Below, one piece after another: positions 10,121 through 28,913 of a stretch of DNA of 64,000 nucleotides; position 1 is the stretch's first letter; each line of letters opens with the position of its first letter. Under the pieces are notes generated by a model. The model did not search any database. It was given only the letters and a program-made list of their open reading frames with translations, and had not been told where the DNA came from. The stretch is from positions 3,194 through 67,193 of the forward strand of contig CALUGT010000015.1 of the NCBI GenBank assembly GCA_944320265.1, given 5' to 3'. Both the position numbers and the translations under genes were made by a program. This stretch comes from an uncultured Bacteroidales bacterium. Its GTDB lineage: Bacteria; Bacteroidota; Bacteroidia; Bacteroidales; P3.

Positions 10121-10525
10121 TTCGGGTTCAAAATAGCCATCATAGGCAGAACCTGTCTCAATGTGAATCATATCAATCTGCCAGACTCTTTCCGGGCTTT
10201 CCTCGTACCAAAGATGCCACTCCACGCAAGCTTCCTCGGTATCAAGCAAGTTCCGATATTCCACCTTCCTCACCTTCGGATTCGAAGCCAAGCAAGCCAC
10301 CACCTTGAAACTTTCCTCCACTTTGACGGGAGAAGAGTAGACGTGGAAATCTATGTCTAGATGCTTGCAAAGAAGCCCCATCCGAAGCGAACCCACCAAC
10401 CGGGCTTCCGCACCAATCTGCTGCCACGTCCTGACAATATCCAAATCCTCAACAATTTCCCGTGCTTTCTGCTGATTGTTCAAAGCCACACGTTCAAATT
10501 CTTCCATACCATCCTCCGTTGTCAC
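10115..10525 (-). CDS. Nucleotidyltransferase-fold protein of unknown function, C-terminally truncated by a MITE end
   Basis: 136 aa containing LVGSLRMGLLCKHLDIDFHVYS (NTase-like G[SG]...D.D). The ORF ends GYFEPEV-stop, with the stop inside the solo TIR. The same frame continues past the TIR as VEHVADRIVAAMAPLQREIILRMKHETPETEKIPGIE up to MITE copy a. Confidence 0.5.
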   Translation of the reverse strand: MTTEDGMEEFERVALNNQQKAREIVEDLDIVRTWQQIGAEARLVGSLRMGLLCKHLDIDFHVYSSPVKVEESFKVVACLASNPKVRKVEYRNLLDTEEACVEWHLWYEESPERVWQIDMIHIETGSAYDGYFEPEV

Positions 10526-11604: not shown

Positions 11605-11645
11605 AACCCCGCGAAGATACGGCAAAGCGGAGGAAACGGCAAAAC

Positions 11646-13721
11646 CTATTTCACCTCGTGCGCATTGATATCGCGCATGTAGGTCAGCTTGAAATCCCTG
11701 CACTTGCGCTTTTCCTGAAACATCCCCTCTATGGAATTATACTCATAGCGGTCAAAAATATCCAAACCTCGACCCAATGTAATAACCCAACCTGTGTCGG
11801 TTTTGATACACCTGTCGTGGAAATCGCGAAACTCGTAAGAAAAAACAATGCCATACTCACTCAGGTTCGTTTGCACTGTCTTCAACAGCGCAATCAAATC
11901 ATCCCGCTTCCCCGGCTCTTCAAAAGTCACTAATTTCAATTGCAACTCATCCACCGGACGAGTCTGGACCAACATCGCAGCAAACTCTATGAAATGCTTG
12001 ACCTGCCCCCGAGTACGGACATACGGGTCTTCCAGCACAATGGCATGCGCCGTTTCCAAATAAGGAGCAAACAGCTTGGCATAAGAAAGCCCCGTCTGTC
12101 CTTGGCGAATGGAAAGCGTCTGTTCCTTGAGCACAGGCGGTTTGGACAAGCCCCTGGATCCGACCGCTTTCCCATCCTGAATCCGGGAATCCCCTACCGT
12201 ATCCATGGGAATCGCATCCAGCGGAGAAGCCTCCTCAAAGGAATCCTCCGTAGCGTTATTGATGTTTTCCAATGTCTCTATTGCCACTTGTTTGCCCGTC
12301 CGCAAAGCATCGTAACGGAACACTGCCGGTTCGGCCTTGAAAGTCTCATCCACCCGGTAAAGCTGATCCTTCACCCTTTTGCGAGCCTCTGCGGCAAAGT
12401 CAATCAATTCATAAACTTCCTCATCCGTTGCTTCGCCATCGGGATACAACAACTTCATCATACCCGACACCGTCTTGCGGACAGCCAGATTATCCCTCTC
12501 CGAAAGCGAAGTATCGAATTGTGCATAACGTCCAAGAATATCGGTCCAATCCCTGTCGCGCAACTCATGGAACATCGCTGCAACATAATCCGAAATCAAG
12601 CCGAACCCCTTCGAGAAACTTTCCGTCTTCAAGACCGGCACCTCCCAACCCGGCGCGTAAAAATGAATCCGATCCAAGAAAGCCCCTTTCAAGAAGCCCT
12701 CCGGTATGCTTTCAAAAAGATGGGATTGACGCAACATATACGAAACCGTATGTTTGGTATTGCCCACAAAAACCATCGAAGCACTGGCTTCGTGCGTGGC
12801 CTTTCCTCGATTGAAAGACTTGTTTGCCAGATAATTCTGCATGATATCCACCAAAGCCGCATCCACGTTCCGCCCTTTTTGCTGCTCAAACTCGTCCATA
12901 GCCACCACATCCCAATACCCCACCAAACCCAGCAATTCCTTGTTGCCCGACATCTTGACAAACAGACGAGCCGGTGTCACATCCCCGCCGCTCACCAGCA
13001 CACTGTAAGGCGAAAGTTCCTGGAAAACATGCGTCTTTCCCGTCCCTTTGGGACCCAGTTCAATAAAATTGAAATTGTTCTCCACATGCGGCAGCAGACG
13101 AGCCAGTATGATGAGCTTTTCCCTACGGTTCAGCAAATCGGGATTCAAGCCGACCGTATGCATCAGGAAATCCAGCCATTCCTCAGTAGAGAAGTTCTTG
13201 CGCTGACTCACATATTCCTCCACATCCACCCCCGAAATCTGAATCGGCTTCAGATTCTGGATATCCCAACGAACCGTAAGGCTCTCTCCAGACAAATAGC
13301 CAATCTGCACAATGCACCACACTCCCGTACCCGACAGCAACTTGGGATTCTTCTTTACATATTCCGCCCCGATAGGCACTCCCGTCAATCCCAGATTGGA
13401 GAATACGGCATGGTAGGCATCAGCCTTCTCATTCAAGCTCACCGTAATCTTGTCAATCACCCGGTATTTGCCCCTCTCCCGGATTTTCCCTTTCACCGAC
13501 TCGGCATCGGCCCTATGGACATAATTTTCCCGAATCACCTCTTTCACTTGCTCTATGCCATCGGCAATAGCTGCCGGATCATCCGTGGCGCAATACTGCG
13601 CTAAAAGGTATTCCAAGACATAAGTAGGCACCGGCAAGCCGCCCTTGACCAAAAAAGCCAAATCCTTGCGGACCACCCGTCCCGGAAAGGATTCCAATAT
13701 TTTATCTTTCAATGTTTTCAT
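11646..13721 (-). CDS. brxL: BREX BrxL-like AAA+ protein with a C-terminal MIT_C (PLD-like) domain instead of a Lon-protease-like domain
   Basis: The N-terminus (KILESFPGRVVRKDLAFLVKGGLPVPTYVLEYLLAQYC) and Walker A (LGPKGTGKTHVF) match BrxL. It is the last gene of the BREX operon. The C-terminal 151 aa read TGLSYAKLFAPYLETAHAIVLEDPYVRTRGQVKHFIEF...FHDRCIKTDTGWVITLGRGLDIF. This closely parallels the MITD1 C-terminal domain (IEDPYIR...[22 protein letters not shown]). Confidence 0.85.
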   Translation of the reverse strand: MKTLKDKILESFPGRVVRKDLAFLVKGGLPVPTYVLEYLLAQYCATDDPAAIADGIEQVKEVIRENYVHRADAESVKGKIRERGKYRVIDKITVSLNEKADAYHAVFSNLGLTGVPIGAEYVKKNPKLLSGTGVWCIVQIGYLSGESLTVRWDIQNLKPIQISGVDVEEYVSQRKNFSTEEWLDFLMHTVGLNPDLLNRREKLIILARLLPHVENNFNFIELGPKGTGKTHVFQELSPYSVLVSGGDVTPARLFVKMSGNKELLGLVGYWDVVAMDEFEQQKGRNVDAALVDIMQNYLANKSFNRGKATHEASASMVFVGNTKHTVSYMLRQSHLFESIPEGFLKGAFLDRIHFYAPGWEVPVLKTESFSKGFGLISDYVAAMFHELRDRDWTDILGRYAQFDTSLSERDNLAVRKTVSGMMKLLYPDGEATDEEVYELIDFAAEARKRVKDQLYRVDETFKAEPAVFRYDALRTGKQVAIETLENINNATEDSFEEASPLDAIPMDTVGDSRIQDGKAVGSRGLSKPPVLKEQTLSIRQGQTGLSYAKLFAPYLETAHAIVLEDPYVRTRGQVKHFIEFAAMLVQTRPVDELQLKLVTFEEPGKRDDLIALLKTVQTNLSEYGIVFSYEFRDFHDRCIKTDTGWVITLGRGLDIFDRYEYNSIEGMFQEKRKCRDFKLTYMRDINAHEVK

Positions 13722-13778
13722 AATAAAAAACTTTCATCATGCAGCCATTGGCCCGATTGTCCATACGCAACTGCAAAA

Positions 13779-16394
13779 TTAAAAATCCCGTTCCACCAAG
13801 GTGTTGTTCCGCACATTTTCCTTGACAAGCGGGTTGAGCGGATCTTCCACATCGTACACCCTGAGCTGAAGCAAACCTCCACTGCAAGGCCGAACCAAAC
13901 GCAAGCTTACCTCATAGACCCGTTCCCGCAGACCTTCCGCCTCCGTATTGTCCATGACCACCTGCTGTTCGTTGCTCACCGGTTCGTCCCCTTGGTATAG
14001 ACAGCAAACCACCGTCCGACCCATCCGCTCCGAAGAGACAGCTTCCGACTGCACCAACTTGAAACGCAAAAGACTGGAAACCACGCTCAAGCCCGAATCC
14101 TTCAATACCAGGCCCACTTTTTCCGTCTTCTTCTCGTTCCGCCTGCTGCTATAAATGACCGGCACAAGCATTTCCTGCAAGCTGGCACCGCCATGGGCAA
14201 ACGCATAACCGCCCGGAGCCGCAAAACGATTTGTCCCGCAAGGCACCGCCACATAGACCGGTGATGCCGTTTTCACTCCCGACACCGTCTCCAAGGCAAA
14301 TTTAGCCACCCCTTCCACCGGTTCGGGATTTGCCGTAAGATAATAACGGGTCTTCAATTCCAAGCATTTCCCATCCTTTTCCAAGCCGTTATTCCCCGCA
14401 ACCGAAAGCTTGTCCTTTTCCTCAAAGGGAATGTCGTTATACAAGAATCCATGATCAGCCGTAATCAACACATTGGTAATGCTGTACGAATAGTGAAGCC
14501 GCTTGACCAAGACAGCCAGCTGCCGCACGGCCTCCCGGCAAGCCCGGATTACCTCGAACGGGCTTTGCGAATGGCTGGCCCGGTCTATGCTATCATGATA
14601 GATATAAACCAAAGTGTTCTTGAACAACTCCTTCAGAACCGCCGTGCCACTGTTCATCACATAGTCGAAACTTACACAGACCGATCTTTCCTTGAACATC
14701 TTCAATTGCGCCGACCTCTGATCCATCTCTTTCAGGACCTGCCCGTCCACCGCCATCTCCGTCCCCCTGAGTTCCAAGGCATGGTGGGGAAGCAGCGCGT
14801 TCTTGCAGAACTTGGTTTCCGTAGGCAACATGGCCCGCATAGCCGACAACTTGGCCACACTGGTCTCTTTCAGCAATTCCTGCCGCAATTCCGCCGCCAA
14901 TTCGTAACGCAAGGCATCGCTGACAATCACCACCTGCTTCACCGTCTTATCACACACTAAACTAAAGAAATCCTCCTGCTTGGGCAAAGAAAGGGAAGCA
15001 AATCCCTCCCCTTTTTCCTGCACGCAAGAAATCCACTCCCAATTCAATGTATGGCAAATACGGGCATAATCCTGATCCAGGCGAGCCTTGGCATCGGAAA
15101 AGCCCTCTCCTTCCGGGTTAAGGTGCTCCACCAGCGCATGAAACGCCTCCACGGAACGCCGGTAATAGAAATCCACAAGATAATATTCCGACAAGTACTT
15201 CCGGGCATATTCTTCCGGACTGTCCAGCTTCAGGCTCCCTATCTCATGCACCGTGGCATAATACAAGGATAACTGTTCCACAAAACGGAACGCGAACTGG
15301 ATAGGCGCTTCCGGCGGCATCTTCAAGGTAAGTTCCTTGACCTTGGAAGTGACCGATGCCGGGTCGGCAACCAGACCTGTCTCCAAGCTTTTCTGCAAAA
15401 TAGGCCAGCAAAGAGCTTCCGTGAGATAAAAATACGGGGCATCGACCCCATAACAGGCTATCAGTTTTTCTTCCTTGATGTCCGATGCCAATACCGACAC
15501 CGCTTCCTGGAATTTCCCGCCCAAGGCACGGTCATGAACGCCTGTCTCGTAAATCCGGACAAGCTGATCCAAAGCCGGCTCGCTGCTTACCTCATAGATC
15601 TTGTAATCATCGGACGGTACGGGAGCAAGCCCCCGGGTAATGATATTGTACTTGAGGCTTGCGGCCACCGCCTGCATCTTAAGCGGCGTATTTTCCTCGT
15701 ATGTCCGACCGAAAATACGCCGCAGCTTGTCATCGAGCGCCTTCCGCACATCCGGGCTCTTCCCTACCCGGTAAAAGAAATCCAGACGTTTCTTTTCCTC
15801 GCTTGCCAATCCCAATACCAGCAGCTTGACCACGATCATATCCCAGTCCAGCAGCTTCTTTTCTCCAAGATAAGAAGAAATCAAGGCCCGGCATACCACC
15901 TCCTCGTGAAAGGCTTCCGGCGTGTAATAAGGCTGCAACATGGCATGCAGCTTGGCCGACATCATCTCCCCGATATGCCGTTTCACAAAGGCGGCGTATT
16001 TCTGCGGAAGGCCATACTGTTGCAAGAAGGACGCATAATCCTCTTCCTGGTATTCCATATTGGCTTTCAGCAAATCGAGCAAGGGGAAGGATAACAGCTG
16101 CGCTTCCGTCTGCGGATAAGACTCCCCTCCAAACAGCAGGACCACCCGCTTGTCTCTCCACGTATGCTCTATGCTGTACTTGGCATTGAACCAAGCCCCG
16201 TCGAACACCTTATAGACATAGCCATCCTTCCACTCCGCCGCGTCCAGTTCCACCTTGATGATGTCCATCCGGTCGAACACGAAAAGCACATGAAGCGCCG
16301 GATTGTTCTCGAAATATCGGTATATCCTCTCTTGTACCATAGCTTTATTGTCTTTATACGCTCCTATCAAGAAAACAATGGCTTCTGAATGCAT
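13779..16394 (-). CDS. pglZ: BREX alkaline-phosphatase-superfamily protein PglZ
   Basis: 871 aa with PglZ-domain motifs (VVIVSDALRYELAAEL; VLITADHGF). It sits between pglX and brxL. An alternative start at 16340 would remove the 28-nt overlap with the upstream small ORF. Confidence 0.9.
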   Translation of the reverse strand: MHSEAIVFLIGAYKDNKAMVQERIYRYFENNPALHVLFVFDRMDIIKVELDAAEWKDGYVYKVFDGAWFNAKYSIEHTWRDKRVVLLFGGESYPQTEAQLLSFPLLDLLKANMEYQEEDYASFLQQYGLPQKYAAFVKRHIGEMMSAKLHAMLQPYYTPEAFHEEVVCRALISSYLGEKKLLDWDMIVVKLLVLGLASEEKKRLDFFYRVGKSPDVRKALDDKLRRIFGRTYEENTPLKMQAVAASLKYNIITRGLAPVPSDDYKIYEVSSEPALDQLVRIYETGVHDRALGGKFQEAVSVLASDIKEEKLIACYGVDAPYFYLTEALCWPILQKSLETGLVADPASVTSKVKELTLKMPPEAPIQFAFRFVEQLSLYYATVHEIGSLKLDSPEEYARKYLSEYYLVDFYYRRSVEAFHALVEHLNPEGEGFSDAKARLDQDYARICHTLNWEWISCVQEKGEGFASLSLPKQEDFFSLVCDKTVKQVVIVSDALRYELAAELRQELLKETSVAKLSAMRAMLPTETKFCKNALLPHHALELRGTEMAVDGQVLKEMDQRSAQLKMFKERSVCVSFDYVMNSGTAVLKELFKNTLVYIYHDSIDRASHSQSPFEVIRACREAVRQLAVLVKRLHYSYSITNVLITADHGFLYNDIPFEEKDKLSVAGNNGLEKDGKCLELKTRYYLTANPEPVEGVAKFALETVSGVKTASPVYVAVPCGTNRFAAPGGYAFAHGGASLQEMLVPVIYSSRRNEKKTEKVGLVLKDSGLSVVSSLLRFKLVQSEAVSSERMGRTVVCCLYQGDEPVSNEQQVVMDNTEAEGLRERVYEVSLRLVRPCSGGLLQLRVYDVEDPLNPLVKENVRNNTLVERDF

Positions 16395-16909
16395 TCACGG
16401 AATTGAGAAACATCGCAAACTTTGCATTTCGCCAATGCCTTTTCCACCCGGCTTTGCTGAGCGAACCAACGTTCAGCCCGGGCAGTCACATTCTTATTGA
16501 AAACGAACCAAGCAGATGAATCAATACGCAAACCGCCTTCTGAAAGCAAATCCCTCGTATGCGACATTTTCTCCCTCAATTCACTCAGAGACAAATTATT
16601 CGTATTCTTGTACTTCATTCTCAATTCTATCATCAACAACCGTCTCTCCCGCAATTGTCCGTCAGTTTGAGACGCAAGCCCGATTACCGCATCCATGGTA
16701 GGCTTTGGTTGAGCGGACTTGCAAATTTTACTCTCGTAAGTATCCATATCCAAGCATCGTATCTCCTTGTCAAAATAATCCGTTCCAGAGTAATCCCGAT
16801 TGGACACATCATTCAACAAAGCTCCGCATTTCGAGAACAAGAGATGACGCTCAAGATACGCATTATCATATACCAGGGCTTCCATATTCTTTGATTCTGT
16901 CCAAGGCAA
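16367..16909 (-). CDS. Hypothetical 180-aa protein, partner of the embedded ATPase (contains an Rx4H motif)
   Basis: The ORF overlaps the ATPase stop (16866) and the pglZ start (16394), so it is translationally packed into the BREX operon. The composition looks helical. It contains LSELREKMSHTRD (R112-x4-H117) and DAVIGL...LLMIELRMK. I recognise no family. Confidence 0.5.
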   Translation of the reverse strand: MPWTESKNMEALVYDNAYLERHLLFSKCGALLNDVSNRDYSGTDYFDKEIRCLDMDTYESKICKSAQPKPTMDAVIGLASQTDGQLRERRLLMIELRMKYKNTNNLSLSELREKMSHTRDLLSEGGLRIDSSAWFVFNKNVTARAERWFAQQSRVEKALAKCKVCDVSQFRECIQKPLFS

Positions 16910-18200
16910 TATTGAAAGACTTGAAAATCTCGGCTATCTCATGGCCAAGGTTCTTATAAACAAACTGATGGGGCGATGTTTGCGAAGGCTCTGCCACATA
17001 AAACCAAGTGGTATCCAGCATGCCTTCCTTCTCGGCTATGTCGTGGAGAGCGGCCACCATGTCGGGATTATGCGAAGCCAACAGCACTTTCAAGCCCAAT
17101 TTCTTGTTCAACAGCACCAGCAGCCGGGCAAACTCCACAATCCATTGCGGATGAAGATGCGCTTCCGGCTCATCAATCAGCAAAAGCGTATTCTTGTCCA
17201 AATGCCCATTTTCCAGCAAACGCTGCATATAGGCAAAAGTCTTGAAACCGGTAGCCACTTGCTTCAATTCTATATTCACCTGGCCATCCTTTGACACATA
17301 ACGAAGCTCCGGCCTCCCTATTGGGTTCTTTTCCATCAAGACCTTACCTTCTATCAAATGGCCAATCCCCTCCAGCATGGAAGAAGCCTCCGGCGACAAT
17401 GCATGCTTCTTATCCATAACCCTCCGCTGCAAATCCCTCCAAATCCTATTGGAAGAATCCTCCGTTGCCGCCATTGGCGTATCTATATAAATAGCATCCT
17501 TCAGATTCAGCAAACGGCCAACAGTATCCTGTTCCATAATCCCTACACTGTCTTCCTCCAACTGCAATTCTTCAGGCACACCTTCGTCCATAGGGAACCT
17601 TTGCTGCACGAACTCAAATAGAAGTTTCCTCGGCCTATTTCCAAGCTTTTGATGTAAGGCTTCGGTCTCCTTTTGCAGGTGTTCTCTTTCCTTCTGTGAA
17701 AATAGGGCAATAGACAAGGTCAAATCGCTTCCGATATGGATATCCAAAAATTTCAAAACCCTTTCCACCCGTTCTTTCGGCATCTCATCATCCAAGCCTG
17801 ACAAACATTCTTCCGTAAAGGCAAGGGCATCCAAATACAATTCCTGCATTTCTTCAATCATACTATCCAACTCTCCAGAAACAACTTGCATAAATTTCCC
17901 CTTGACTTGCTGTATCCTGTTTGCCGCACTATCCATCGGGTTATCAGAAACTCTTCCTCGTCCCAATTCCATGCAGGCAACACGCCAATCCTCCATCTTT
18001 TTCCACAACTTGCCACCGTAATCATCCACCACCAGATACCTTTCAAGATTCACAGCCCCATTGACAATATAATACAGCCAGCGAGAAAGGGTGCTTTTGC
18101 CGCATCCGTTGACTCCCGACAAGACCGTGATGCCGTCAAGCTCGATTTCCGCATTTTCAATAGCGTGATAGTCACGCATGATATATTTATATCGGCTCAT
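16866..18200 (-). CDS. ABC-like AAA family ATPase (AAA_15/AAA_21 type) embedded in the BREX operon
   Basis: Walker A is LSGVNGCGKSTL. A long helical insert is followed by Walker B/D-loop LLLIDEPEAHLHPQW and an H-loop-like LLASHNPDMV. No nuclease domain is visible in the 444 aa. Confidence 0.85.
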   Translation of the reverse strand: MSRYKYIMRDYHAIENAEIELDGITVLSGVNGCGKSTLSRWLYYIVNGAVNLERYLVVDDYGGKLWKKMEDWRVACMELGRGRVSDNPMDSAANRIQQVKGKFMQVVSGELDSMIEEMQELYLDALAFTEECLSGLDDEMPKERVERVLKFLDIHIGSDLTLSIALFSQKEREHLQKETEALHQKLGNRPRKLLFEFVQQRFPMDEGVPEELQLEEDSVGIMEQDTVGRLLNLKDAIYIDTPMAATEDSSNRIWRDLQRRVMDKKHALSPEASSMLEGIGHLIEGKVLMEKNPIGRPELRYVSKDGQVNIELKQVATGFKTFAYMQRLLENGHLDKNTLLLIDEPEAHLHPQWIVEFARLLVLLNKKLGLKVLLASHNPDMVAALHDIAEKEGMLDTTWFYVAEPSQTSPHQFVYKNLGHEIAEIFKSFNIALDRIKEYGSPGI

Positions 18201-18229
18201 AATCTCTAAAATTTCAAATGTTCAAAGCC

Positions 18230-19003
18230 TCATTTCAATTTGGCAAGGACATCGCCGAACTTGGCATGGTTCACAATAACCCCATCGTCCAAATCCAAAT
18301 CGATGGCCTGTTCCGCCACTACTTGCAAACGGTCGTGGTATTCCCGGCATTCATCCAATGTCTTTTCCAAAGCGCTCAACTTGCGCGTCTCCCCCGTGCT
18401 CAACTGGGCGGCCCGGGATTCCAAGTCCTTGGCCCGGTTTTGCAAAAAATCGATATAAGGCAGAAGGTATTTGACCCGGATGCGTTCCGCCGTGTAAGGA
18501 GCCATCCGGTGCAGATAGGTGATGCAGCGGAAAGCCCCCTTCCTGGAAGACCAAAGCCAGTAGATAGGGCGGTTCTGGTACATCCGCTTATGGTCTTTCC
18601 AGAACTCCTTGTCCACATAACGCTCTATGGTCATGCCCAAGCTCTTTTCCATGAAATTAAGGTTCTCGGTCAATTTTGCCGTGCCAAAGGCAATGCGGAC
18701 AAAGTCCACCACCCTCCGTTCCAGATTGTCCTCAAAAGGGCAATCGTGCGGCAGCAGGGGAATGATGCCGTCATCGTCTATCTGCAAGACTTGCCCCTTA
18801 TATTGGTAAGGAGCCAATTCCTCTGCCGTAGGCTTAGGATGGGCTATATGCAAACCCGGTTTATCCAAACGGTAACGCCCCATCCAGACACCCACCGCAT
18901 AACTGATCAATTGCTGCATGGCCACCTCCGGATGCCATACAATCCTTTCCGAACCTGCCACGTTTGTATTCATTGCTTTCATTTCTTCGCATTTCTTTTC
19001 CAT
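18230..19003 (-). CDS. pglX: BREX PglX, C-terminal fragment (separate ORF)
   Basis: It contains MQQLISYAVGVWMGRYRLDKPGLHIAH ... NRPIYWLWSSRKGAFRCITYLHRMAPYTAERIRVKYL, the conserved C-terminal region of BREX-1 PglX. The start is set at the first ATG (19003); the ORF track extends to a TTG at 19048. Confidence 0.8.
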   Translation of the reverse strand: MEKKCEEMKAMNTNVAGSERIVWHPEVAMQQLISYAVGVWMGRYRLDKPGLHIAHPKPTAEELAPYQYKGQVLQIDDDGIIPLLPHDCPFEDNLERRVVDFVRIAFGTAKLTENLNFMEKSLGMTIERYVDKEFWKDHKRMYQNRPIYWLWSSRKGAFRCITYLHRMAPYTAERIRVKYLLPYIDFLQNRAKDLESRAAQLSTGETRKLSALEKTLDECREYHDRLQVVAEQAIDLDLDDGVIVNHAKFGDVLAKLK

Positions 19004-19055
19004 ACACTCTTGCTTCAGACTTAAACGAACCAACTCCAAGAAAAGCAACCTATTT

Positions 19056-20735: not shown

Positions 20736-20751
20736 GGTATGTTCTCTATTT

Positions 20752-23721
20752 TTATTCGGTGGGGGATTTCTCGATGGAGATTTCGCCTTGCTGGAGGATG
20801 GTCACCTCTTCCAAGGGCACATCGGGGGTAAGCTCGTCGGCGAGGTCGTAGATTTCGATGAACTGCCGGTTGAGTTCCTCCTCGTTCCGGTGCAATTGCA
20901 GGAACTTGGTCTCCCATTTGGTCTTATAGACCTCATAGCGCCATTCCAAACTGTCTAAATCGAGTGCCGGCAGATTCACACAAGGCACTCCCCGGAAATC
21001 GGCATCTTCAGCCATAATATCTCTATAGGCATTCTCATCTATCGCCACCAACTCGTTCTGTTGGAAATCCCAAGAAGTCTCATGCGCGTCCCAGTCCTGC
21101 TTGGAGATGGAGATGTTTTGAAAAACTAATAAATCTATCTTATCTGAATCCTCAATAACAATAAAGGGAATCTTTCCCATAGGTCCCTCATGATAATCCA
21201 AAGTTGGAGATAATGTCTGTAAAAACACATATGATAAAGCCGAATTAAGGTATCCCATAATGCAATACAAATCATTATCAGCATAAGGGAAACAAACCGA
21301 ACCCTTGGTTTCAAAAAGCCAACTCCTATCAAAATAACGAAAAGACGGTTTCCCAGAGGATATTGTAGACCACGTAGCACCTATCTTTCCAAAATAGAAG
21401 CCTTCATTCTGAGGACGAGACTTCAACTTTCCATCTATGTCTTTAAAATTTTTTATTTCAACTCCGTTATGTTCCCAATTCACCACATATTCCATATTGC
21501 CATACCATCGTCTAAAAGTACCACCTTTGGTAATAGGAAACCATTTTTTTCCTGATTCTTTTGCTTCTTCAGCAGAACCCATTCCAAATCCAATCCGTGC
21601 CAGAGTGACTTCATGCCAATATCGAATAAACCTGGCGTTGTCCGCTGTTTGCAAGCCTACACAAGGCTTAGCAACAGCGGACAACGCCAGGTTTCCCGCG
21701 AAGCGGGAAAAAATTTTTTGAGAAACCCAGTACCCTATCGGGCTTCCGGGGATTTTTTTGAAATTTTGCTGAAGAACATGGGGGTAATAAATCCGATTTC
21801 CAACCTCCGAATAAGGCAATGTCTCAACTTCTTTGGTATATTCCTTGAAATTATACTTAAAATCATGGTCTGCTAAAGTCTGTTCAAACAACATCCGCAA
21901 ATGCTTTTGGTCAAACTCTTGGAATGTACGCTCCACCAAACGGAAATAGGTCCCGCAAGCAGCCGGATTCTGCGACTTGGCAATCACAGCCGACGACGAG
22001 CCAAAGTCTGCGCCAAACACCCCTCTACTAAGATGCAAAATAGAATCGATAGATTGACTATCGAGTATTCCTTTCCGCAAATTTTCAAAAGTACTTAGAA
22101 ACATCCAAGATGGAGGGATAATAAACCCATATCGTCCATGCGTTTCTAATCTTTGGGGCATCATTTCAACAAAAACCGTAGCCAAGTCCCCCTTCCCAGC
22201 CTCGTAATGCTTCTTCACATAAGCCGACAAGACCGGATTCATATTGCCGCCGCCCATATAAGGTGGATTCATCACCAAAACCGCATATTTCTCCGTCAGT
22301 ACCTTAATCAGGTCCAAGGCCGGTAGCAAAGCCGTGACGGATTCCGGCAACAGGGGCTGCGCCTTCCAGTAATCCATCGCCTGGGATATGGCCGATAGCG
22401 TAGTTTCGGACAAGTCGAACTTCATAATGGAACCCAAGGATTCGGCATCGGATAGCAAAGAAAAGGCCTTTTGCATCTCTGCCAGCATCTTGTCATTCTC
22501 CAGACCATTAAAGAAGGCTTTCAACGCCTTATCCAACGAGCCATAAGCCCCCTCATTCCAAGGCTGAGGCATATCCAAGACCTGCGGCAAAACCTTGGCA
22601 TCGACAAAGGAGGCATCTTTCTGGCAGGCTTTGAGCAGAAGCGCAAACAAGGCAAGCTGCTTGGCCCGGGTATCTATGTCCACGCCCCTCAGGTTGCAAC
22701 GGAAGATATTCTCCACCGCTTCCTTGCGCCCATAGCCCTCGGAGATATAAAGCTCGTACAAAAGGTCGAAGCATTCGTTGAGGATATGGCCAGATCCGCA
22801 AGCCAGATCCGCCACCTTCAAATCGGTCAGTTCGGCATAGCGGTAACGGCATTCCTCCGGTGTCGGTTCTCCCTCCACCCAATAAGCCCACTTCCGCTTC
22901 GCCTCCTCGGCATAAGGATTGTTATCCCAATAAATCCTCCCCAAGGTATTCTGCACCATATATTTCACAATCCAATTGGGCGTGAAAATCTGGGTTGCCG
23001 CTGGAATCTCGTCCGCCTCGAACTTGCCTTTCTTGGCAAACACCTCATCCTTGCGTTCCGAGATATAGAACTGGTAGAGCCAGCCTATCAGTTCCGGGGA
23101 ACGGTAGTCCTCCTCGGCAATAAAGTCGGTATGGTTGAGCATGTCCACAAAACCGCCCTCGCTCAGGATGTTGATCGGCAGCATCAGTTCCGTGTAGTCC
23201 TGCATGCGCCCGAAACAAGCCTGCATCAAAGGGTTCTGATGGCACCAGGCCACCATCAGAAGCGCGAACTGCTCGGTGGTCTTGGTATCGTCTTCCAACA
23301 ATTCCAGCAAACGCGTCCTTTCCGCCTCCGGCATACGGGGCAAGCGTCCCCGCCTGGCATCGTCCACGATACGGGGGGTGCGCACCTCGTCCACGAACTC
23401 GATTACCGGCTCGCACAGGCCGTTTTTCTGAAGAATCCGAATCGCCACCAGACGGTTGAACCAGGTGTAAGCCGCCTCCTCGCAGGTCTCCTGCATCCCT
23501 TTCCGGGCGATTCTCTCGTAGAGCGCCATCCAGCTATGGTAAAAGCGTTCCGTATAGAAACCGCCCTGCCAGAGGGTTCCGCCCTGCATCAGCTTGGGCA
23601 TGGCTTCTTCCGGGATATGGCCGTTCTTGTCAAAGCCCAAAGAACGTATCTTGGCTTCCACGCCGCTCTTGAGGCGGGTCCGGGCTTCGTTGGCGAATTT
23701 CTTCAGCTTGTTGGTTTCCAT
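20752..23721 (-). CDS. pglX: BREX adenine methyltransferase PglX, N-terminal fragment (989 aa, methyltransferase core)
   Basis: The N-terminus (FANEARTRLKSGVEAKI..., YTWFNRLVAIRILQKNG) is typical of PglX. Motif I is VADLACGSGHIL and motif IV is VLVMNPPYMGG. It ends ...TILQQGEISIEKSPTE-stop, about 240 aa short of a full-length PglX. Confidence 0.9.
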   Translation of the reverse strand: METNKLKKFANEARTRLKSGVEAKIRSLGFDKNGHIPEEAMPKLMQGGTLWQGGFYTERFYHSWMALYERIARKGMQETCEEAAYTWFNRLVAIRILQKNGLCEPVIEFVDEVRTPRIVDDARRGRLPRMPEAERTRLLELLEDDTKTTEQFALLMVAWCHQNPLMQACFGRMQDYTELMLPINILSEGGFVDMLNHTDFIAEEDYRSPELIGWLYQFYISERKDEVFAKKGKFEADEIPAATQIFTPNWIVKYMVQNTLGRIYWDNNPYAEEAKRKWAYWVEGEPTPEECRYRYAELTDLKVADLACGSGHILNECFDLLYELYISEGYGRKEAVENIFRCNLRGVDIDTRAKQLALFALLLKACQKDASFVDAKVLPQVLDMPQPWNEGAYGSLDKALKAFFNGLENDKMLAEMQKAFSLLSDAESLGSIMKFDLSETTLSAISQAMDYWKAQPLLPESVTALLPALDLIKVLTEKYAVLVMNPPYMGGGNMNPVLSAYVKKHYEAGKGDLATVFVEMMPQRLETHGRYGFIIPPSWMFLSTFENLRKGILDSQSIDSILHLSRGVFGADFGSSSAVIAKSQNPAACGTYFRLVERTFQEFDQKHLRMLFEQTLADHDFKYNFKEYTKEVETLPYSEVGNRIYYPHVLQQNFKKIPGSPIGYWVSQKIFSRFAGNLALSAVAKPCVGLQTADNARFIRYWHEVTLARIGFGMGSAEEAKESGKKWFPITKGGTFRRWYGNMEYVVNWEHNGVEIKNFKDIDGKLKSRPQNEGFYFGKIGATWSTISSGKPSFRYFDRSWLFETKGSVCFPYADNDLYCIMGYLNSALSYVFLQTLSPTLDYHEGPMGKIPFIVIEDSDKIDLLVFQNISISKQDWDAHETSWDFQQNELVAIDENAYRDIMAEDADFRGVPCVNLPALDLDSLEWRYEVYKTKWETKFLQLHRNEEELNRQFIEIYDLADELTPDVPLEEVTILQQGEISIEKSPTE

Positions 23722-23779
23722 TTTGCTTTTCTTTTCAATAATGCCGTTTTGTCGCAGACAAGGGTTTCCGTATCCGGTT

Positions 23780-26700
23780 TTACTTTATCACCGTCACTTC
23801 GTAGCCGTCATTGATTTTGTCCATCAGCTGCTGCTTGATCTTCTTCAAATAGTCATCCACTTCCTTTTCCGTGCGCATGGGCACGAAAGTCCGGGTGGAC
23901 AACTCTATACTGCAAGGCTTCCGGGTCTTGCCTAGTTTCCCTGCCGACTGCCCGTCTTGGTCCATGCCTGGATCATGGGCCGTACCGGGAAGGCCGGGCT
24001 GGGGATAATCCTGCGGTTTCTTCCGAGCCAGTTCCGCTTGAATCAAATCCAATTGCTGGCTTGCAAAACTTTGCGTATCCAGATTGTTCTTCAGCATCAG
24101 GATATTGCTCGAGGCGGTCTTTTCCTGAAGGATGCGCTTGCGGTCGGCCAATACGGACTTGTCCACGCCCTGCTGCTCGGCACTCTGTTCCAAAGCATCG
24201 AAAAGGGCATTATATTCCTTTTCTATCTGCTGCCGCAATTCCTGGCGCTGCTTGTCGAGGGCTGCCGAAACAGCATTTTTCAACTTGATATAGTCCCGGA
24301 TGGAGATAGGCCAGGCTTGGGTCTCTATGCCCTTGAGTTCTTCCGCCTGCGCTTGGAGTTCGGCCGGTACAAAGGCAAAATTGTCGCGGTTTTCCCGTAC
24401 AAAAGCCAGCAAGGAACGGTAATTGTCAAACTGATCCTGCACAAAAGCCAGAACTTCCTTGCAGGTGTCCGCCAGCTTGGCCGCTTCTTCCTGACTGTCT
24501 ATGATACTCTGGAAGAATTTCTGGTTGTCCCGGATTTCTATCCACTGATCCAGCATCGCAATAAATTCCCGCAGCGGCTTCACAAACGGGTATTCCGCGT
24601 AACGGCTTTCCTCCTCCCGGTATGTCTTTTTGCAGGCGGGCAGGCTGTTCTCGTTCTTGGCATCCTTGCATTGGCGGAAAATCTGGGTGCTGTCGGACGA
24701 GGCGAAGGCATCCTTGCCGAAAATCCGTTTCCATGCATCCACAAAACGGTTCACCAAATCCTGCGGAATGGCTTCCGCCCGGCGAAGCGTGAATTTCTTG
24801 GTCTCGGTCAGGATGCGGCTCGCCACGACAGAGGCTTCCACTTCCGGACTATTGAGGTAAAGGTAGTCCCGCCGATGACGGCGCACCAGCTCGTTAATCA
24901 CGTACAAAGTGCAGACATCGTCCCAACCGTAGGGGGCTTTGGCGAACTTGGCCAATACATCCGCCACATTCACTTCGGCAAACTGCTTGTCAAGATAGAT
25001 TTCCACTTCCTGCTCGGCCTGCGTCAAGCTGGAGTTCAGCTCGCCATAGTCGTAAGACTGCACGGGACGCAGGATGGACTGGCGCAACTGTTCGGAAGTA
25101 TGAGGGTATTCGGCCCGGTTCACCAAGCCCGCCTTGGTATAGATATTGCCTAAATGCTTCTGCAAGGCTTTGCGGTAACGTTCCTCGCCCTTGCTGTTCA
25201 ATATTTCCGGATCTTCCACCACCGACACGCCCGACACGATGGGGCATGTGTCCAAAATAGAGGCAAAGCTCTTGGCAATGACGGTATCCATCAATTCCCT
25301 GGCTCTCTTCTCGAACTCGCCCCTGATTTTGGCGTTCTCTTCGGTAAGCGCCGGGGATGCCATGTAACGGCTCACTTGGCAATACCAATAGAAGGCGTTC
25401 CGCAAGCGGTTGTCTTTCTTGTACTGGGAGGCCACGTAATAGACAAGCCTGTTAGCCGGATTGCCCACCGTGATGGCGGCAGCGCTGTCGTATTCCTCGT
25501 CCATCTGGAAATCGACCACCACATCGGCGTTGTTGCTCAGGAAGGTACGTTGCTTGATAGTCGCCCCCACTGCAAAGGAACGGGTCATATACGTCTCCTT
25601 GTTCTTGGGGTTGCCGAAATGCCGGAAAAAGATATCCTTCAATACTTCGGCTTGGGTATTGTTGTCAGGGACCTGGCCTTTGATCTGCGAGGCCACTTTC
25701 ATTTCCTCTTCCGAATAGAAGCTATAGGTTTCGGGAAGCCCTTTCCTGGCCTGCTCCCGACGGATGATATTGTTATCGCAGAAATAGTCCAGCACCTTTT
25801 CCACTTCCTGCTTGATGGTGAGCCAAGGCGTCCTGAGATCGTTGACCAACAAAGTCGTCACATTGTCCAAGCTGGCCGGGAACACCATCTTGTCCCGATC
25901 ATCGATATTGCAAATCATGAACAGGACATTGGCTACCCGCCGAGCCAGTTCCGGCTTGGAATAGGTCCGGGCCATATCCATCGCGTTGCTGATGGCTTTC
26001 TGCCCTTTTGCCTGCAAGCCTTCCTCGAACATATTGTTGTACAGCTCGTCGAAAGAGACGAAATGCCCCAACTCCTGGTCCTTGTCATTCTTAGCCGTGG
26101 AATGAATCACTTTGATAATGCTGCGTTCATTGCCCTTCACCTCCTTGGCCACATAGCCCAACAGCAGGAAATTATTGAATACCTGCATGATTAGCTTGAA
26201 CTGGTAGGGCACGAAGGGATAATAGGCAACAAAATCTTCCTGGCTGCGATAGGACTCATAGCTATTGGGCAACTTGAAATGAAGGTCAAAGGAAGGGCTT
26301 TCCTTGGCATACCATTCCCCTAAAACCGGTTTCACTTCCGCTTTCTTTTCCAGGATACGTTTCTGGGTAATCACTTCGGGCTTGGTGCCTTTGAGGGATA
26401 CCGTCACCTCGAAGCGCCCCTTGATTTTCCCTTCCTTGTCCTTTCCTTCCATAATGTTGCAGTCGTCCATCACTTCCGAAAGGTCCTGCTGCGCGGTGCA
26501 GGCCACCCAAACCTGGTTCTGACAAGACTCGGACAGCTTGGTGACAATCTCCTGCAAGTTCAGGTAACGGTCTTTTTCCTTGTTGATGAATTGGGAAACC
26601 TCATCGGCCAACAGGACCAAACGGTAATCCTTGCCTTTGTCCTTGAGCCACGATGCCACCTCGCCGGCAAAACGCTCTATGCTGACCGTGGTATCGCGCT

Positions 26701-27427
26701 TGATGATACGCTCCCGTATGCTTTCCTTGTCGAGCGAAGGGGCCAATTCCGCCGCAATGTCCAAGACCATGCCCAGCTCGTTGTCCACCAAATCGGCAGC
26801 CTCGCCGGGATCATCCCAATCAGCCCCTATCTCCCGGATACGTTGCTTGAACTGGTCAAAGACCCCTTTCTCGGCCAAAGGCTTTTCCAGATGCTGCGCC
26901 AAGGTAAGGTTGAACTTGTTGAAGCCCCGTTTGGCATTGAACTCGTTCCAGAATACATGCAGGAAGGCCTTCTTCTTGTCGGTGGAATTGTCGTAAGAAG
27001 TCTCCAGATTGAATATGCAGGTGTCTATCGTGGCTTTCTTGAGCCAATTGGCAATGCCAAGCAGGTCGGCATAATCAAAATCGAGGTTATGTTCGGTATC
27101 CCGCATGTCTATCGCCTTGACGGCTTGCAGGAAGCGTTCCATCGCCTCCTCCTGGGTATCAGGCGAGATGCAATAGTCGAGGTATTTCAGAAAATGGGAT
27201 TTTCCCGAACCGTAATAACCGTCTATCCAAATCCCCACATGCTCGAAAGGCAGGTTGTCTTTCAAGGCCGCTAGTATCCGGTACAAACCCGACATGGTCT
27301 CATCGGTAAAGACATATTCCGAGATTTCAATCTGCTTGGTAGCCTTGTCCAGCTTGGTAGCGCTGACCGCCGGATTGACGGGACGTTCAATGGGCTTCTC
27401 GTATAATTCTTTCAGTTTCATAATCAT
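23780..27427 (-). CDS. brxC: BREX ATPase BrxC/PglY
   Basis: 1215 aa with a P-loop (DGYYGSGKSHFLKYL). Size and position between brxB and pglX fit BrxC. Confidence 0.9.
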   Translation of the reverse strand: MIMKLKELYEKPIERPVNPAVSATKLDKATKQIEISEYVFTDETMSGLYRILAALKDNLPFEHVGIWIDGYYGSGKSHFLKYLDYCISPDTQEEAMERFLQAVKAIDMRDTEHNLDFDYADLLGIANWLKKATIDTCIFNLETSYDNSTDKKKAFLHVFWNEFNAKRGFNKFNLTLAQHLEKPLAEKGVFDQFKQRIREIGADWDDPGEAADLVDNELGMVLDIAAELAPSLDKESIRERIIKRDTTVSIERFAGEVASWLKDKGKDYRLVLLADEVSQFINKEKDRYLNLQEIVTKLSESCQNQVWVACTAQQDLSEVMDDCNIMEGKDKEGKIKGRFEVTVSLKGTKPEVITQKRILEKKAEVKPVLGEWYAKESPSFDLHFKLPNSYESYRSQEDFVAYYPFVPYQFKLIMQVFNNFLLLGYVAKEVKGNERSIIKVIHSTAKNDKDQELGHFVSFDELYNNMFEEGLQAKGQKAISNAMDMARTYSKPELARRVANVLFMICNIDDRDKMVFPASLDNVTTLLVNDLRTPWLTIKQEVEKVLDYFCDNNIIRREQARKGLPETYSFYSEEEMKVASQIKGQVPDNNTQAEVLKDIFFRHFGNPKNKETYMTRSFAVGATIKQRTFLSNNADVVVDFQMDEEYDSAAAITVGNPANRLVYYVASQYKKDNRLRNAFYWYCQVSRYMASPALTEENAKIRGEFEKRARELMDTVIAKSFASILDTCPIVSGVSVVEDPEILNSKGEERYRKALQKHLGNIYTKAGLVNRAEYPHTSEQLRQSILRPVQSYDYGELNSSLTQAEQEVEIYLDKQFAEVNVADVLAKFAKAPYGWDDVCTLYVINELVRRHRRDYLYLNSPEVEASVVASRILTETKKFTLRRAEAIPQDLVNRFVDAWKRIFGKDAFASSDSTQIFRQCKDAKNENSLPACKKTYREEESRYAEYPFVKPLREFIAMLDQWIEIRDNQKFFQSIIDSQEEAAKLADTCKEVLAFVQDQFDNYRSLLAFVRENRDNFAFVPAELQAQAEELKGIETQAWPISIRDYIKLKNAVSAALDKQRQELRQQIEKEYNALFDALEQSAEQQGVDKSVLADRKRILQEKTASSNILMLKNNLDTQSFASQQLDLIQAELARKKPQDYPQPGLPGTAHDPGMDQDGQSAGKLGKTRKPCSIELSTRTFVPMRTEKEVDDYLKKIKQQLMDKINDGYEVTVIK

Positions 27428-28035
27428 TCATTAATCAGAAGCGTGGCACGATAAGTATGATTGTCGGGAAGGAGGCCGAAAAGCCGGAAGGAATTGCCTT
27501 CCCGCTTGCCGGGATAAAAGACAATAATCTTGTATTTGTCGGTCTGGTTGTAGTCTTCGTAAAGAGCCAGGAATTCGTTGACCCGGAGATAGGGAAACAT
27601 GGATCCGATGCCGTGCAAGAAGACATAGGGCCGCTTGTATTGGTCTTTTTGGGAAATATGATGCTGGATCCGATGGTCGATGTATTTCAGGAAATCCTCA
27701 TGATGGGCGTTGCGCGTCAAGGTATCCTGAACGTTGGAAGCCTGAGCCGGGTCGTTTTCTTCCTTTTTCAAAAGGTAGCCGAGCATGGAAGGATTGTTCA
27801 AGAACTTCTTTTGGTCCAAGAAGGCGCAAAATTCCTCAAAAAGATTCAACACCAGCACATCCACGTAATTGAGCGGGCGTATCAGGTTGGCCTTGAATTC
27901 CTGTATCTCCTTCCGGATACCGTATTCGTTCTCGGCAGGGTACTGGAAAAGATAAAAGTTGTAGAACAAATCCCCGTTTTCCGCATCCTGGAAACCGGGA
28001 CTGCTCAGCTTCTCATAGAGTTCCTTTACGGTCAT
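27424..28035 (-). CDS. brxB: BREX protein BrxB (DUF1788)
   Basis: From the Met at 28035 the sequence reads MTVKELYEKLSSPGFQD...FYNFYLFQYPAENEYGIRKEIQEF...VFLHGIGSMFPYLRVNEFL...IVFYPG. This is a DUF1788-like pattern. It has ATGA-type overlaps with brxA and brxC. Confidence 0.85.
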   Translation of the reverse strand: MTVKELYEKLSSPGFQDAENGDLFYNFYLFQYPAENEYGIRKEIQEFKANLIRPLNYVDVLVLNLFEEFCAFLDQKKFLNNPSMLGYLLKKEENDPAQASNVQDTLTRNAHHEDFLKYIDHRIQHHISQKDQYKRPYVFLHGIGSMFPYLRVNEFLALYEDYNQTDKYKIIVFYPGKREGNSFRLFGLLPDNHTYRATLLINE

Positions 28036-28661
28036 GCCAATGATGTTTTCAATTTCTCTATCTGGTAAGGCTGCAGCAAACAAGCTTCCAGGAACCAGGC
28101 TTCGCCATGCAAAAGGTAATAAGCCTGGTTGCCGCACAGCAACGGATGCAGACCGTTGTCCTCATCCAACATGCCTACTTTGCGAAGCAGGGTCAGATAG
28201 GTGCTTGCCAGTTTCTTCTTGGTAGCTTCCGTCCAAGAGTCCACAAAATCGTCCTTGGCCGAAAGTTCGTTGAGTTCCATATAAATGTCGTCCAGGGTTA
28301 CGCTCTTGGAAATGGAGTTCCACTTTTTCATGGCCACATTGACATGGAAGTCGAACAGAATCCGGTAAGTCTTGAGCAAGACAAAAAACAAGGCAGCTTT
28401 CCGGTCTTCTTCCGGCATCTGAACATAATCCTGCCAGAAAGAAACCGGCATGGCATCGTAACGCCTTTCCACCTCGGCCATGATCCGCTTCCGGGACGTC
28501 TCGGCATTGATATGCAGAAGCCGGTTCTCGGAAGCTTCCTGTTGCAGGAATTCTTGCCGATTTCCGGACATAAGCAGCGGCAAGAGGATATTGGTCTCCT
28601 CGTACAGGAAACCGCCTCCTGAAACCGCTGCGGAATAAGGGCTATTGTATTTCTTTTTCAT
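28032..28661 (-). CDS. brxA: BREX protein BrxA (DUF1819)
   Basis: From the Met at 28661 the sequence reads MKKKYNSPYSAAVSGGGFLYEETNILLPLL...RKRIMAEVERRYDAMP...AALFFVLLKTYRILFDFHVNV. This is a DUF1819-like pattern. It is the first gene of the operon. Confidence 0.85.
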   Translation of the reverse strand: MKKKYNSPYSAAVSGGGFLYEETNILLPLLMSGNRQEFLQQEASENRLLHINAETSRKRIMAEVERRYDAMPVSFWQDYVQMPEEDRKAALFFVLLKTYRILFDFHVNVAMKKWNSISKSVTLDDIYMELNELSAKDDFVDSWTEATKKKLASTYLTLLRKVGMLDEDNGLHPLLCGNQAYYLLHGEAWFLEACLLQPYQIEKLKTSLA

Positions 28662-28913
28662 AATTGCGCAAATATGCAAATTTAAGAAATTCTTATGTAC
28701 CGAATGGATTCCTGTCAAAATTCATACATATTACAAACAACATTTCCCTATAAGAAGGTATTTCCATAAAGAAAAATACCTATTTATAGCGATAACAAAA
28801 CCCGTGAGACCCTTGTACTTTCGCAAACGAAAACAGAGACAGCAAACATCCAATCCAAAAATTTGATTTTATTTAAAATAACACCATAAAAAAACAAAAT
28901 AAATTCAAATAAC

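Follow-up and report, generated by a model that had tools for sequence, protein, structure and literature searches.

A 64,000-nucleotide stretch of DNA from an uncultured Bacteroidales bacterium (contig CALUGT010000015.1, positions 3,194 to 67,193, hereafter the window) carries a type 1 bacteriophage exclusion (BREX) locus of about 17 kb. The locus consists of 11 co-directional, tightly packed open reading frames (ORFs) on the minus strand, within window positions 11646-28718. A preliminary description of this DNA had reported six BREX genes in canonical order, a gene nested in a split pglX, a gene pair between pglX and pglZ and an atypical BrxL C-terminus. The split pglX had been listed as a local oddity. 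The split is real, but this reading understated it: the break is a recurrent cargo slot at a fixed position, in which cassettes are exchanged between strains.

The operon and its genes

All six BREX-1 families (BrxA, BrxB, BrxC, PglX, PglZ and BrxL) are found above their curated cutoffs, in canonical order and on one strand, and the PADLOC models concur for each of the six genes, which confirms the reported gene content. The Pfam scores are 103 bits for BrxA (cutoff 23) and 87.8 bits for BrxB (cutoff 26.8). BrxC matches NF033441 end to end with 793 bits (cutoff 400), PglZ matches TIGR02687 with 274.1 bits (cutoff 270.35) and BrxL matches TIGR02688 with 529 bits (cutoff 329). The features of the locus are listed below in the direction of transcription; TRD stands for target recognition domain, wHTH for winged helix-turn-helix and PLD for phospholipase D.

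28677-28684, minus: candidate Bacteroidetes -7 promoter box TAAATTTG, 16 nt upstream of brxA, suggested by a pattern search
28032-28661, minus: brxA, 209 aa from the ATG at 28661 (Pfam BrxA, E = 1.5e-29; 12 PADLOC BrxA models)
27424-28035, minus: brxB, 203 aa (Pfam BrxB, E = 7.7e-25; PADLOC BrxB, E = 1.8e-39)
23780-27427, minus: brxC, 1215 aa (NCBIfam BREX_BrxC, NF033441; PADLOC BrxC, E = 2.6e-154)
20752-23721, minus: pglX-N, 989 aa, with the N-terminal helical bundle, N6-adenine methyltransferase, TRD and spacer helices (NF033452, PADLOC, PDB)
21118-22182, minus: strain-variable segment of pglX-N, about residues 513-868, covering the C-terminal methyltransferase part and the TRD (GC 0.40; differs in the related contig L010)
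19056-20735, minus: nested cargo gene, 559 aa, Schlafen (AlbA_2) + HATPase_c_4 + C-terminal wHTH (Pfam AlbA_2, E = 4.7e-13; HATPase_c_4, 1.4e-06; Fic-like_C, 1.3e-10)
18230-19003, minus: pglX-C, 257 aa, the C-terminal wHTH + coiled-coil module of PglX (NF033452 positions 955-1209)
16866-18200, minus: OLD/AriA-like ABC ATPase, 444 aa (Pfam AAA_15, E = 2.5e-18; AAA_21, 1.5e-16)
17257-18051, minus: strain-variable middle domain of the ATPase, about residues 51-315 (DNA similarity to the related contigs L001 and L010 is lost exactly here)
16367-16885, minus: small partner protein, 172 aa; its gene shares 20 nt with the ATPase gene
13779-16343, minus: pglZ, about 854 aa from the ATG at 16343 (Pfam PglZ, E = 1.3e-37; TIGR02687; PADLOC PglZ, 3.7e-101)
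11646-13721, minus: brxL, 691 aa, BrxL_N + BrxL_ATPase + PLD/HKD-type C-terminal domain (Pfam E = 4.1e-46, 5.1e-120 and 4.6e-35)

The brxA stop and brxB start share an ATGA at 28035-28032, and brxB and brxC share another at 27427-27424; both overlaps, and the brxA ATG, can be read in the sequence as had been reported. Elsewhere in the operon, neighbouring genes overlap or lie 16-58 nt apart. For brxB, the start at 28035 is preferred to an upstream GTG. The longest pglZ ORF begins at 16394, and the gene probably starts at 16343, since this start fits the 853-aa product called in L001. The catalytic motifs (NPPY, HRD, Ex4ExK and Walker A/B) are intact across the locus.

The locus is flanked by chromosomal Bacteroidota genes: a cation-efflux gene (10522-11703) on one side and, on the other, a gene for a type IX secretion system (T9SS)-sorted protein (28914-32294), followed by lnt and a sigma-54 regulator. 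There is no tRNA gene in the 64-kb window, and none of its genes upstream of brxA is a BrxR/WYL gene, which is present there in other loci. The locus is a complete type 1 BREX locus of a Bacteroidales lineage, belonging to the BrxL-HKD subtype; it probably forms an intact chromosomal operon, and to judge from its sequence it is apparently working.

Expression signals are less distinct. The TAnnTTTG motif occurs 37 times in the window (28.6 expected), and no exact TAnnTTTG box was found before the cargo genes by pattern search. Scans of the window for sigma-70 promoters (21 found, 18.4 expected) and intrinsic terminators (20 found, 20.4 expected) were at chance level. Because none of these scans rises above chance, the operon structure is one that we infer; most likely, the cargo genes are co-transcribed with BREX from the brxA promoter.

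A pglX gene split at a recurrent position

The two parts of pglX, with the AlbA_2 gene between them as previously reported, together make up a whole PglX, although the family definition makes no provision for a protein in two pieces. The NF033452 model is matched by pglX-N with 812 bits (cutoff 500) at positions 1-960 of 1210 and by pglX-C with 236 bits at positions 955-1209. In the PADLOC PglX model of 1174 positions, 1-931 are found in pglX-N and 936-1170 in pglX-C, with no sequence lost. The pglX-N product matches PDB structures of PglX/BrxX with E = 1e-127, has the NPPY methyltransferase motif at residue 485 and ends in ...ILQQGEISIEKSPTE before the stop codon. pglX-C has its own ATG at 19003, and its product aligns to residues 947-1195 of E. 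coli BrxX and residues 972-1215 of Salmonella PglX.

A domain boundary in Salmonella PglX has been placed at residue 961, and the C-terminal region holds five of the six salt-bridge partners of the inhibitor Ocr (Went et al.). The same region has been described as a wHTH with a coiled-coil extension (Rakesh & Krishnan, PMC12839542); the function of Salmonella residues 961-1225 is still called unknown. Since it coincides with this boundary and with the wHTH/coiled-coil region, the split lies at a domain boundary, in a short linker of variable sequence that separates the spacer helices from the conserved C-terminal module. In an AlphaFold2 (AF2) model of PglX-C alone, the predicted local distance difference test (pLDDT) score exceeds 90 in most of residues ~20-235. 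Superposition of this model on BrxX/PglX gives a TMq of 0.73-0.77 over six chains, the best having a root-mean-square deviation (RMSD) of 2.5 Å over 242 columns (E = 2e-16). The parts modelled with low confidence are a 19-residue leader and the last 21 residues. This tail is almost invariant in the family (D237, L238, D239, D240, G241, V242, N245, K248, G250 and D251).

The comparison with related Bacteroidales BREX loci that the preliminary description had proposed shows how common this arrangement is. A scan of one genome per species gave 79 Bacteroidales loci, among them loci of Prevotella, Segatella, Bacteroides, Parabacteroides and Muribaculaceae; the census covers the 80 best-matching Bacteroidales loci, with cargo ORFs called by a simple longest-ORF rule. 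Split status was determined by tblastn and ORF tracing and could be assessed for 74 pglX copies. Of these 74 copies, 16 are split, some of them in complete genomes, and every break falls in the linker described above (query coordinates: PglX-N end 982-989, PglX-C start 1-20). Stand-alone proteins of ~245 aa make up about half of the 120 best PglX-C relatives.

When the metagenome loci L001 and L006 are added to the 16 split copies, 17 of the 18 non-redundant split loci have a single co-oriented gene in the gap. In the 16 copies, the cargo is of the AlbA_2-histidine kinase (HK)-wHTH type in four, Fic in four, a DUF1016/YhcG nuclease in five, DUF6078 in one and unknown in two. In L006, the stop of the Fic gene overlaps the start of pglX-C. 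By locus, the gap cargo is as follows.

AlbA_2-HATPase_c_4-wHTH: window/L010, L001, L027, L065, L066
Fic + wHTH or Bro-N: L006, L024, L025, L033, L036
DUF1016_N + YhcG_C nuclease: L011, L014, L021, L040, L044
DUF6078: L069
Unknown: L076, L084

In a neighbour-joining sketch of the PglX-C tree, split loci are interleaved with unsplit ones, and close relatives bear different cargo. One pair of Segatella copri loci differs only at the linker, which is 45 nt long in L029 (strain G8) and replaced by 1576 nt in L027 (strain F3-48). The ratio of nonsynonymous to synonymous substitution rates (dN/dS) of pglX-C between split loci is 0.03-0.14, even for distantly related ones. The detached pglX-C is thus kept under purifying selection, which argues strongly against pseudogenisation.

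Neither a cargo gene nested in a split pglX nor the recurrence of such genes in Bacteroidales was found described in the BREX survey with its supplements or by targeted searches, a provisional result of incomplete coverage. Split or fragmented BrxX is not mentioned in the text and available supplements of Rakesh & Krishnan (PMC12839542). Provisionally, a split pglX has been described only once before, and then without cargo.

Several other features of pglX are of note. A near-perfect inverted repeat with 31-nt arms and a 5-nt spacer lies inside pglX-N at 21628-21694 (hairpin to ~21710), at the start of the TRD and within the strain-variable segment. It is coding (peptide ...NLALSAVAKPCVGLQTADNARF...), and as RNA it would fold with -63 kcal/mol (z = -11.7). 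The Logan contigs L001 and L002 both end at this repeat, the length of which perhaps breaks assembly. A role in recombination or attenuation is possible. There is no sign of phase variation at the window locus in the form of a second pglX copy, an invertase, an inverted pglX copy or a long inverted repeat pair. Four loci of the Prevotella group (L023, L039, L059 and L065) have two tandem pglX copies, which may relate to published phase-variable pglX systems; L065 has a fused first copy and, as its second, a split one that holds AlbA_2 cargo.

There is also a second class of PglX C-terminal fragments (P0189, P0226, P0210 and P0167), of 363-420 aa, whose starts fall in the TRD or shortly behind it, ~120-170 aa before the linker. 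One example is L009 (7441-11092), where pglX is called as 821 aa and 363 aa, 95 nt apart and with no cargo. Several of these fragments are on contigs of more than 20 kb and are therefore not contig-end truncations, which suggests a second recurrent break point.

Cargo slots, exchanged segments and accessory modules

The pglX linker is not the only place where additional genes are found. The pglX-pglZ junction holds cargo in 46 of 66 loci, 0.4-8 kb long and always co-oriented. The proteins encoded there include AlbA_2-type (15), SIR2/ThsA-like (13), OLD-ABC (12, including strong matches to Gabija GajA with UvrD helicases), GmrSD (6) and Fic (3). At the brxC-pglX junction, 11 of 52 loci have genes from the same pool, including ABC ATPase + DUF4435, AlbA_2, 23S_rRNA_IVP and T5orf172. 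In the loci examined, pglZ and brxL are adjacent.

Close relatives of the window locus show how this content changes between strains. L010, a contig from a metagenome-assembled genome ("uncultured Bacteroidales bacterium BRZ_QB bin6"), is 98% identical to the window in DNA. In L001/L002 and L010, BrxL is 99-100% identical to that of the window, and the DNA is 97-99.9% identical except for three blocks. The first is the variable segment of pglX-N: window and L010 are 98% identical on both sides of it, while only a 57-nt island is retained inside. The second is the nested gene, which in L001 is swapped as a whole, from the pglX-N stop to the pglX-C ATG, for an AlbA_2 gene that is only 24% identical, between flanks of 97-99.9% identity. 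The third is the middle of the ATPase, where L001 and L010 share another allele (95% identity); the ends of the ATPase protein are ~97% identical, compared to 54% over its full length. Assortment of the three blocks is independent, and their GC content is 0.40-0.46, compared to 0.49-0.54 for the core genes. A 7-nt AAAATAG that follows both stop codons in the window was considered as an insertion mark and is treated as chance, as it is absent from other loci.

The nested protein is predicted to be a Schlafen-type tRNase fused to a histidine-kinase-like domain and a wHTH. It has the intact Schlafen Ex4ExK motif (ESNRIEFK, residues 17-24) and the three parts that define the prokaryotic Schlafen HisKinase-HTH class: AlbA_2 with Ex4(E/D)xK, a HATPase-like domain and an HTH (Taboada et al. 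2025). The GC content of its gene is 0.44. Phage-triggered tRNA cleavage and defence have been demonstrated for other Schlafen fusions, DUF262-Slfn and Ig-like-Slfn (Taboada et al. 2025). BREX and restriction-modification (R-M) are not mentioned in the bacterial Schlafen preprint. Within the AlbA_2 gene are two copies of a 24-27-nt palindrome (ACTTGGACA-N6-TGTCCAAGT; window 19309-19424, 78 nt apart), located between the HATPase_c_4 and wHTH domains and encoding a repeated LGQM(A/F)VQV peptide. They resemble operator sites for a dimeric HTH protein and lie ~300-400 nt upstream of pglX-C.

Between pglX and pglZ are the two genes that the preliminary description had noted as an ATPase and a small ORF. 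The ATPase has a Walker A motif (GVNGCGKS) and the sequence DEPEAHLHP, and it makes partial PADLOC matches with similar scores to HEC-02A, AriA, NsnB, Old, GajA and PtuA; that to AriA covers model positions 201-373 of 373 (E = 1.6e-20). The small ORF matches no Pfam, PADLOC or NCBIfam model, and Pfam finds nothing in ten of its full-length homologues. A word-indexed search retrieved only two close clusters, and an exhaustive phmmer search retrieved 285 representatives. The family members are mostly ~262 aa long, making the window protein a short form. D31, D48, D65, G69, E87 and K106 are invariant in the family and E51 is nearly so. In the AF2 model (pLDDT 93.9), D65, E87, K106 and E51 are placed on a beta-beta-alpha core. 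None of the Foldseek matches is significant; the best-superposing one is the nicking endonuclease Nt.BspD6I (probability 0.72, RMSD 4.1 Å). Mus81, EcoT38I and BsmI are among the lower, non-significant matches, many of which are to PD-(D/E)xK-type nucleases. It is plausible that the small ORF encodes a divergent PD-(D/E)xK-like nuclease, a fold assignment that lacks statistical support.

Full-length homologues of the small ORF are directly preceded by the gene of an AAA_15/21 ATPase of 449-455 aa, which they overlap by 20 nt as in the window, and in L092 and L093 the pair directly follows hsdS-hsdR of a type I R-M system. Because it recurs with the same overlap and also after type I R-M, the pair appears to be a portable two-gene module associated with methylation-based defence. 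Identification of the pair as PARIS or HEC-02 was rejected, as the partner does not match: AriB, the TOPRIM (DUF4435) partner in PARIS, has no family match in the small ORF or its full-length homologues.

The C-terminus of BrxL was likewise described correctly. Residues 544-683 match the PLD-like Pfam family MIT_C (E = 4.6e-35), and an HRD motif is found at residue 635 (HDRCIKTD). The PADLOC model PDLC02508 matches BrxL from end to end (E = 2.5e-250), while the Lon-type BrxL structure 8emc aligns to residues 5-457 only; the C-terminus matches human MITD1. The same three Pfam domains are found in all 120 of the best 120 BrxL relatives, from at least 8000. The protein has all parts of the BrxL-HKD variant: BrxL_N, an MCM-like ATPase and a PLD/HKD domain with HRD that replaces the inactive LonP. 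This is a common variant that has already been published: an HKD-type C-terminus with the HRD motif is found in 1030 of 2913 BREX-1 taxa (Rakesh & Krishnan, NAR 2026, PMC12839542, where an earlier report is cited).

Elsewhere in the window, a type I R-M HsdM gene (433-2001, minus strand; N6_Mtase, E = 1.4e-96, and HsdM_N) represents a second methylation-based system, ~10 kb away from the BREX locus. Several copies of a ~35-nt element with the core CCCAAATCGGTCATTAGAC, resembling repetitive extragenic palindromic (REP) sequences or miniature inverted-repeat transposable elements (MITEs), are found in both orientations at 9045-10131, an apparently non-coding stretch downstream of the cation-efflux gene. 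A tandem repeat at 50761-50951 has a 77-nt unit in 2.5 copies of 98% identity, with a TATCTTTG box in each unit on the minus strand.

Interpretation and comparison with known systems

The reading that we consider likely as a whole is that of an intact BREX-1 operon with a two-part PglX and exchangeable cargo slots, function being read throughout from homology and conserved sequence. PglX would be made as two polypeptides that assemble non-covalently in trans, the invariant tail of PglX-C probably serving as the docking element onto PglX-N. The pglX linker is one of three permissive slots, along with the pglX-pglZ junction and, less often, the brxC-pglX junction, in which accessory defence genes from a shared pool are exchanged. 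Because there are no transposon-like ends, recombination sites or target-site duplications at the cargo borders, the mechanism of exchange is one that we infer, the likely route being homologous recombination via the conserved flanking BREX sequence. The cargo would most likely consist of self-contained second-layer modules of the abortive-infection type that use the operon for expression and linkage, and probably not of obligatory BREX subunits. One such module would be an ATPase with a strain-variable middle (sensor) domain and a small partner that is possibly a nuclease; OLD-ABC pairs are known to work as sensor-effector systems.

Several observations weigh against parts of this model. The near-invariant tail, the presumed docking element, is of low confidence when PglX-C is modelled alone; a larger PglX C-terminal domain could not be expressed alone (Went et al.); and it is only conservation that points to activity of the split PglX. 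The cargo borders share no target-site duplication, terminal inverted repeat, integrase, tRNA or recombination site, as seen from a repeat search and from the junctions read in the window, L024/L009 and L027/L029. The AlbA_2 allele of L001 (920-2506) reads ESERVERT, without the K of Ex4ExK, and may be catalytically different or inactive, so that some cargo copies may lack activity. A ~90-aa C-terminal domain found in most family members is missing from the small ORF, and none of its Foldseek matches in the PDB reaches significance (E >= 0.14, probability <= 0.72). One copy of the small ORF, with 56% identity, is a lone gene with no adjacent ATPase (L089 10001-10486, 161 aa). This copy lies between lnt and the gene for a T9SS-sorted protein in a related Bacteroidales genome.

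A different view is that the cargo is wired to BREX as a guard that monitors the PglX C-terminal module or complex and fires upon inhibition by an Ocr-like DNA mimic, with the Schlafen domain cleaving tRNA and the partner of the ATPase acting as a nuclease; PrrC/EcoprrI and PARIS/Ocr would be the precedents. The split does isolate the PglX module that includes the Ocr contacts K1070, K1097, K1110, K1201 and D1213 of Salmonella PglX. PARIS, an OLD-ABC + TOPRIM pair embedded in Salmonella BREX, senses Ocr, and hypervariability, as in the middle domain of the ATPase, would be expected of a domain that senses phage proteins. The Fic gene of L006 is an example of cargo in translational coupling with pglX-C, and backup effectors that counter anti-BREX factors have been proposed (Rakesh & Krishnan, PMC12839542). 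However, the same cargo families occupy the pglX-pglZ and brxC-pglX slots, where no nesting in pglX is needed, and the ATPase pair is also found behind a type I R-M system; an obligatory link between cargo and split is less likely for these reasons. Moreover, the three unrelated cargo families in the slot have no obvious common interface with PglX-C. We consider a guard of this kind rather unlikely. Still more doubtful is an extension in which the split is itself adaptive, the freed C-terminal module with its Ocr-type mimic surface and the co-translated nested effector forming a built-in sensor-effector pair. If this were so, binding of an inhibitor to the free module would release or activate the neighbouring toxin, be it a Schlafen tRNase, Fic enzyme or DUF1016 nuclease, and the slot inside pglX would be an exchangeable "guard socket" for BREX.

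Two further explanations were weighed. According to one, pglX was inactivated by the inserted foreign gene, leaving pseudogene remnants and a loss of BREX methylation and defence. A gene inserted into another is usually disruptive, the cargo has a foreign-looking GC content (0.44 vs. about 0.52), and PADLOC has several short PglX fragment models, meaning that fragments are common in databases. This reading is already disfavoured and very improbable in light of two complete ORFs with no model positions lost, the ATG of pglX-C, the low dN/dS even between distant split loci, the same split in 16 species representatives including complete genomes, and the intact genes and motifs in the rest of the operon. 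According to the other, the AlbA_2-HATPase_c_4-wHTH protein is no effector but a transcriptional regulator of the BREX operon, analogous to BrxR. Its C-terminal wHTH, the absence of a BrxR/WYL gene upstream of brxA in the window and the two TTGGACA-N-TGTCCAA palindromes, 78 nt apart inside its gene, would fit such a role. The intact Ex4ExK catalytic motif would not, and tRNase activity triggered by phage has been shown for other bacterial Schlafen fusions. Elsewhere the slot is filled by Fic enzymes or DUF1016 nucleases, which fits effector cargo better, and loci that do have a WYL gene still bear such cargo. A regulator is thus highly unlikely.

If the locus is an intact operon with exchangeable slots, conservation would indicate that the PglX C-terminal region tolerates separate encoding, which gives a construct design for biochemistry, and would suggest the invariant tail as a docking element. 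The interdomain linker of a gene could then act as a hotspot for defence genes, alongside the pglX-pglZ junction. Strain-level swaps affect the TRD of PglX, the putative nested effector and the presumed sensor domain of the ATPase. In gut Bacteroidales, among them Segatella copri, Bacteroides and Parabacteroides, this would be a compact, trackable locus of phage-resistance diversity. Split loci may be called incomplete or pseudogenised by annotation pipelines that look for a PglX of ~1200 aa.

The preliminary description had suggested an undescribed BREX core with integrated modules. It is a complete BREX-1 with accessory modules, but the BrxL-HKD, Schlafen-HK-wHTH and OLD-ABC classes have already been published. 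Compared to canonical BREX-1, represented by E. coli HS BrxX, Salmonella D23580 PglX and Acinetobacter BrxL, the locus has the same six families, order and translational coupling of BrxA, BrxB and BrxC. The two PglX halves jointly align over the full length of the solved BrxX/PglX, and the N-terminal and ATPase domains of BrxL align with 8emc. However, PglX is encoded as two proteins instead of a single protein of ~1200 aa, the domain at the end of BrxL is of the PLD/HKD type rather than an inactive Lon protease domain, and the operon has three extra genes.

Schlafen-HK-wHTH genes and pairs of OLD-ABC and nuclease genes embedded in BREX loci have been described as backup effectors (Rakesh & Krishnan, NAR 2026, PMC12839542). 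The window locus shares with these systems the HKD/HRD BrxL, the Schlafen-HK-wHTH gene and the OLD-ABC with a small nuclease-like gene in the core locus. It differs in that its ATPase partner falls in no named nuclease family, and neither a split PglX nor cargo nested in one is mentioned there. A two-part PglX is known from the BREX-1 system of Brevibacterium casei, where a first coding sequence (CDS) covers the N-terminal and middle parts and the C-terminus is encoded by another CDS downstream, so that a constant C-terminus is likewise separated from a variable region (Milman et al., NAR 2023, PMC9881135). In that system, which belongs to another phylum, the first CDS undergoes programmed inversions and no nested gene is reported, whereas the window has no invertase or inverted pglX copy.

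The PARIS system (AriA/AriB) in Salmonella BREX similarly consists of an OLD-family ABC ATPase and a small partner inside the BREX operon. The pair in the window, however, lacks a partner resembling TOPRIM/AriB, and its match to the AriA model is confined to the C-terminal half. Embedded accessory genes are also found in type I R-M operons, such as those for PrrC/RloC, or for Fic, AlbA_2 and DUF1016 proteins between the hsd genes. These operons share their cargo families with the BREX slots, including Fic, AlbA_2, DUF1016, ABC ATPase pairs and 23S_rRNA_IVP. Type I R-M cargo lies between genes, however, whereas the pglX slot of BREX is inside a coding sequence, where a new stop codon and a new start are needed.

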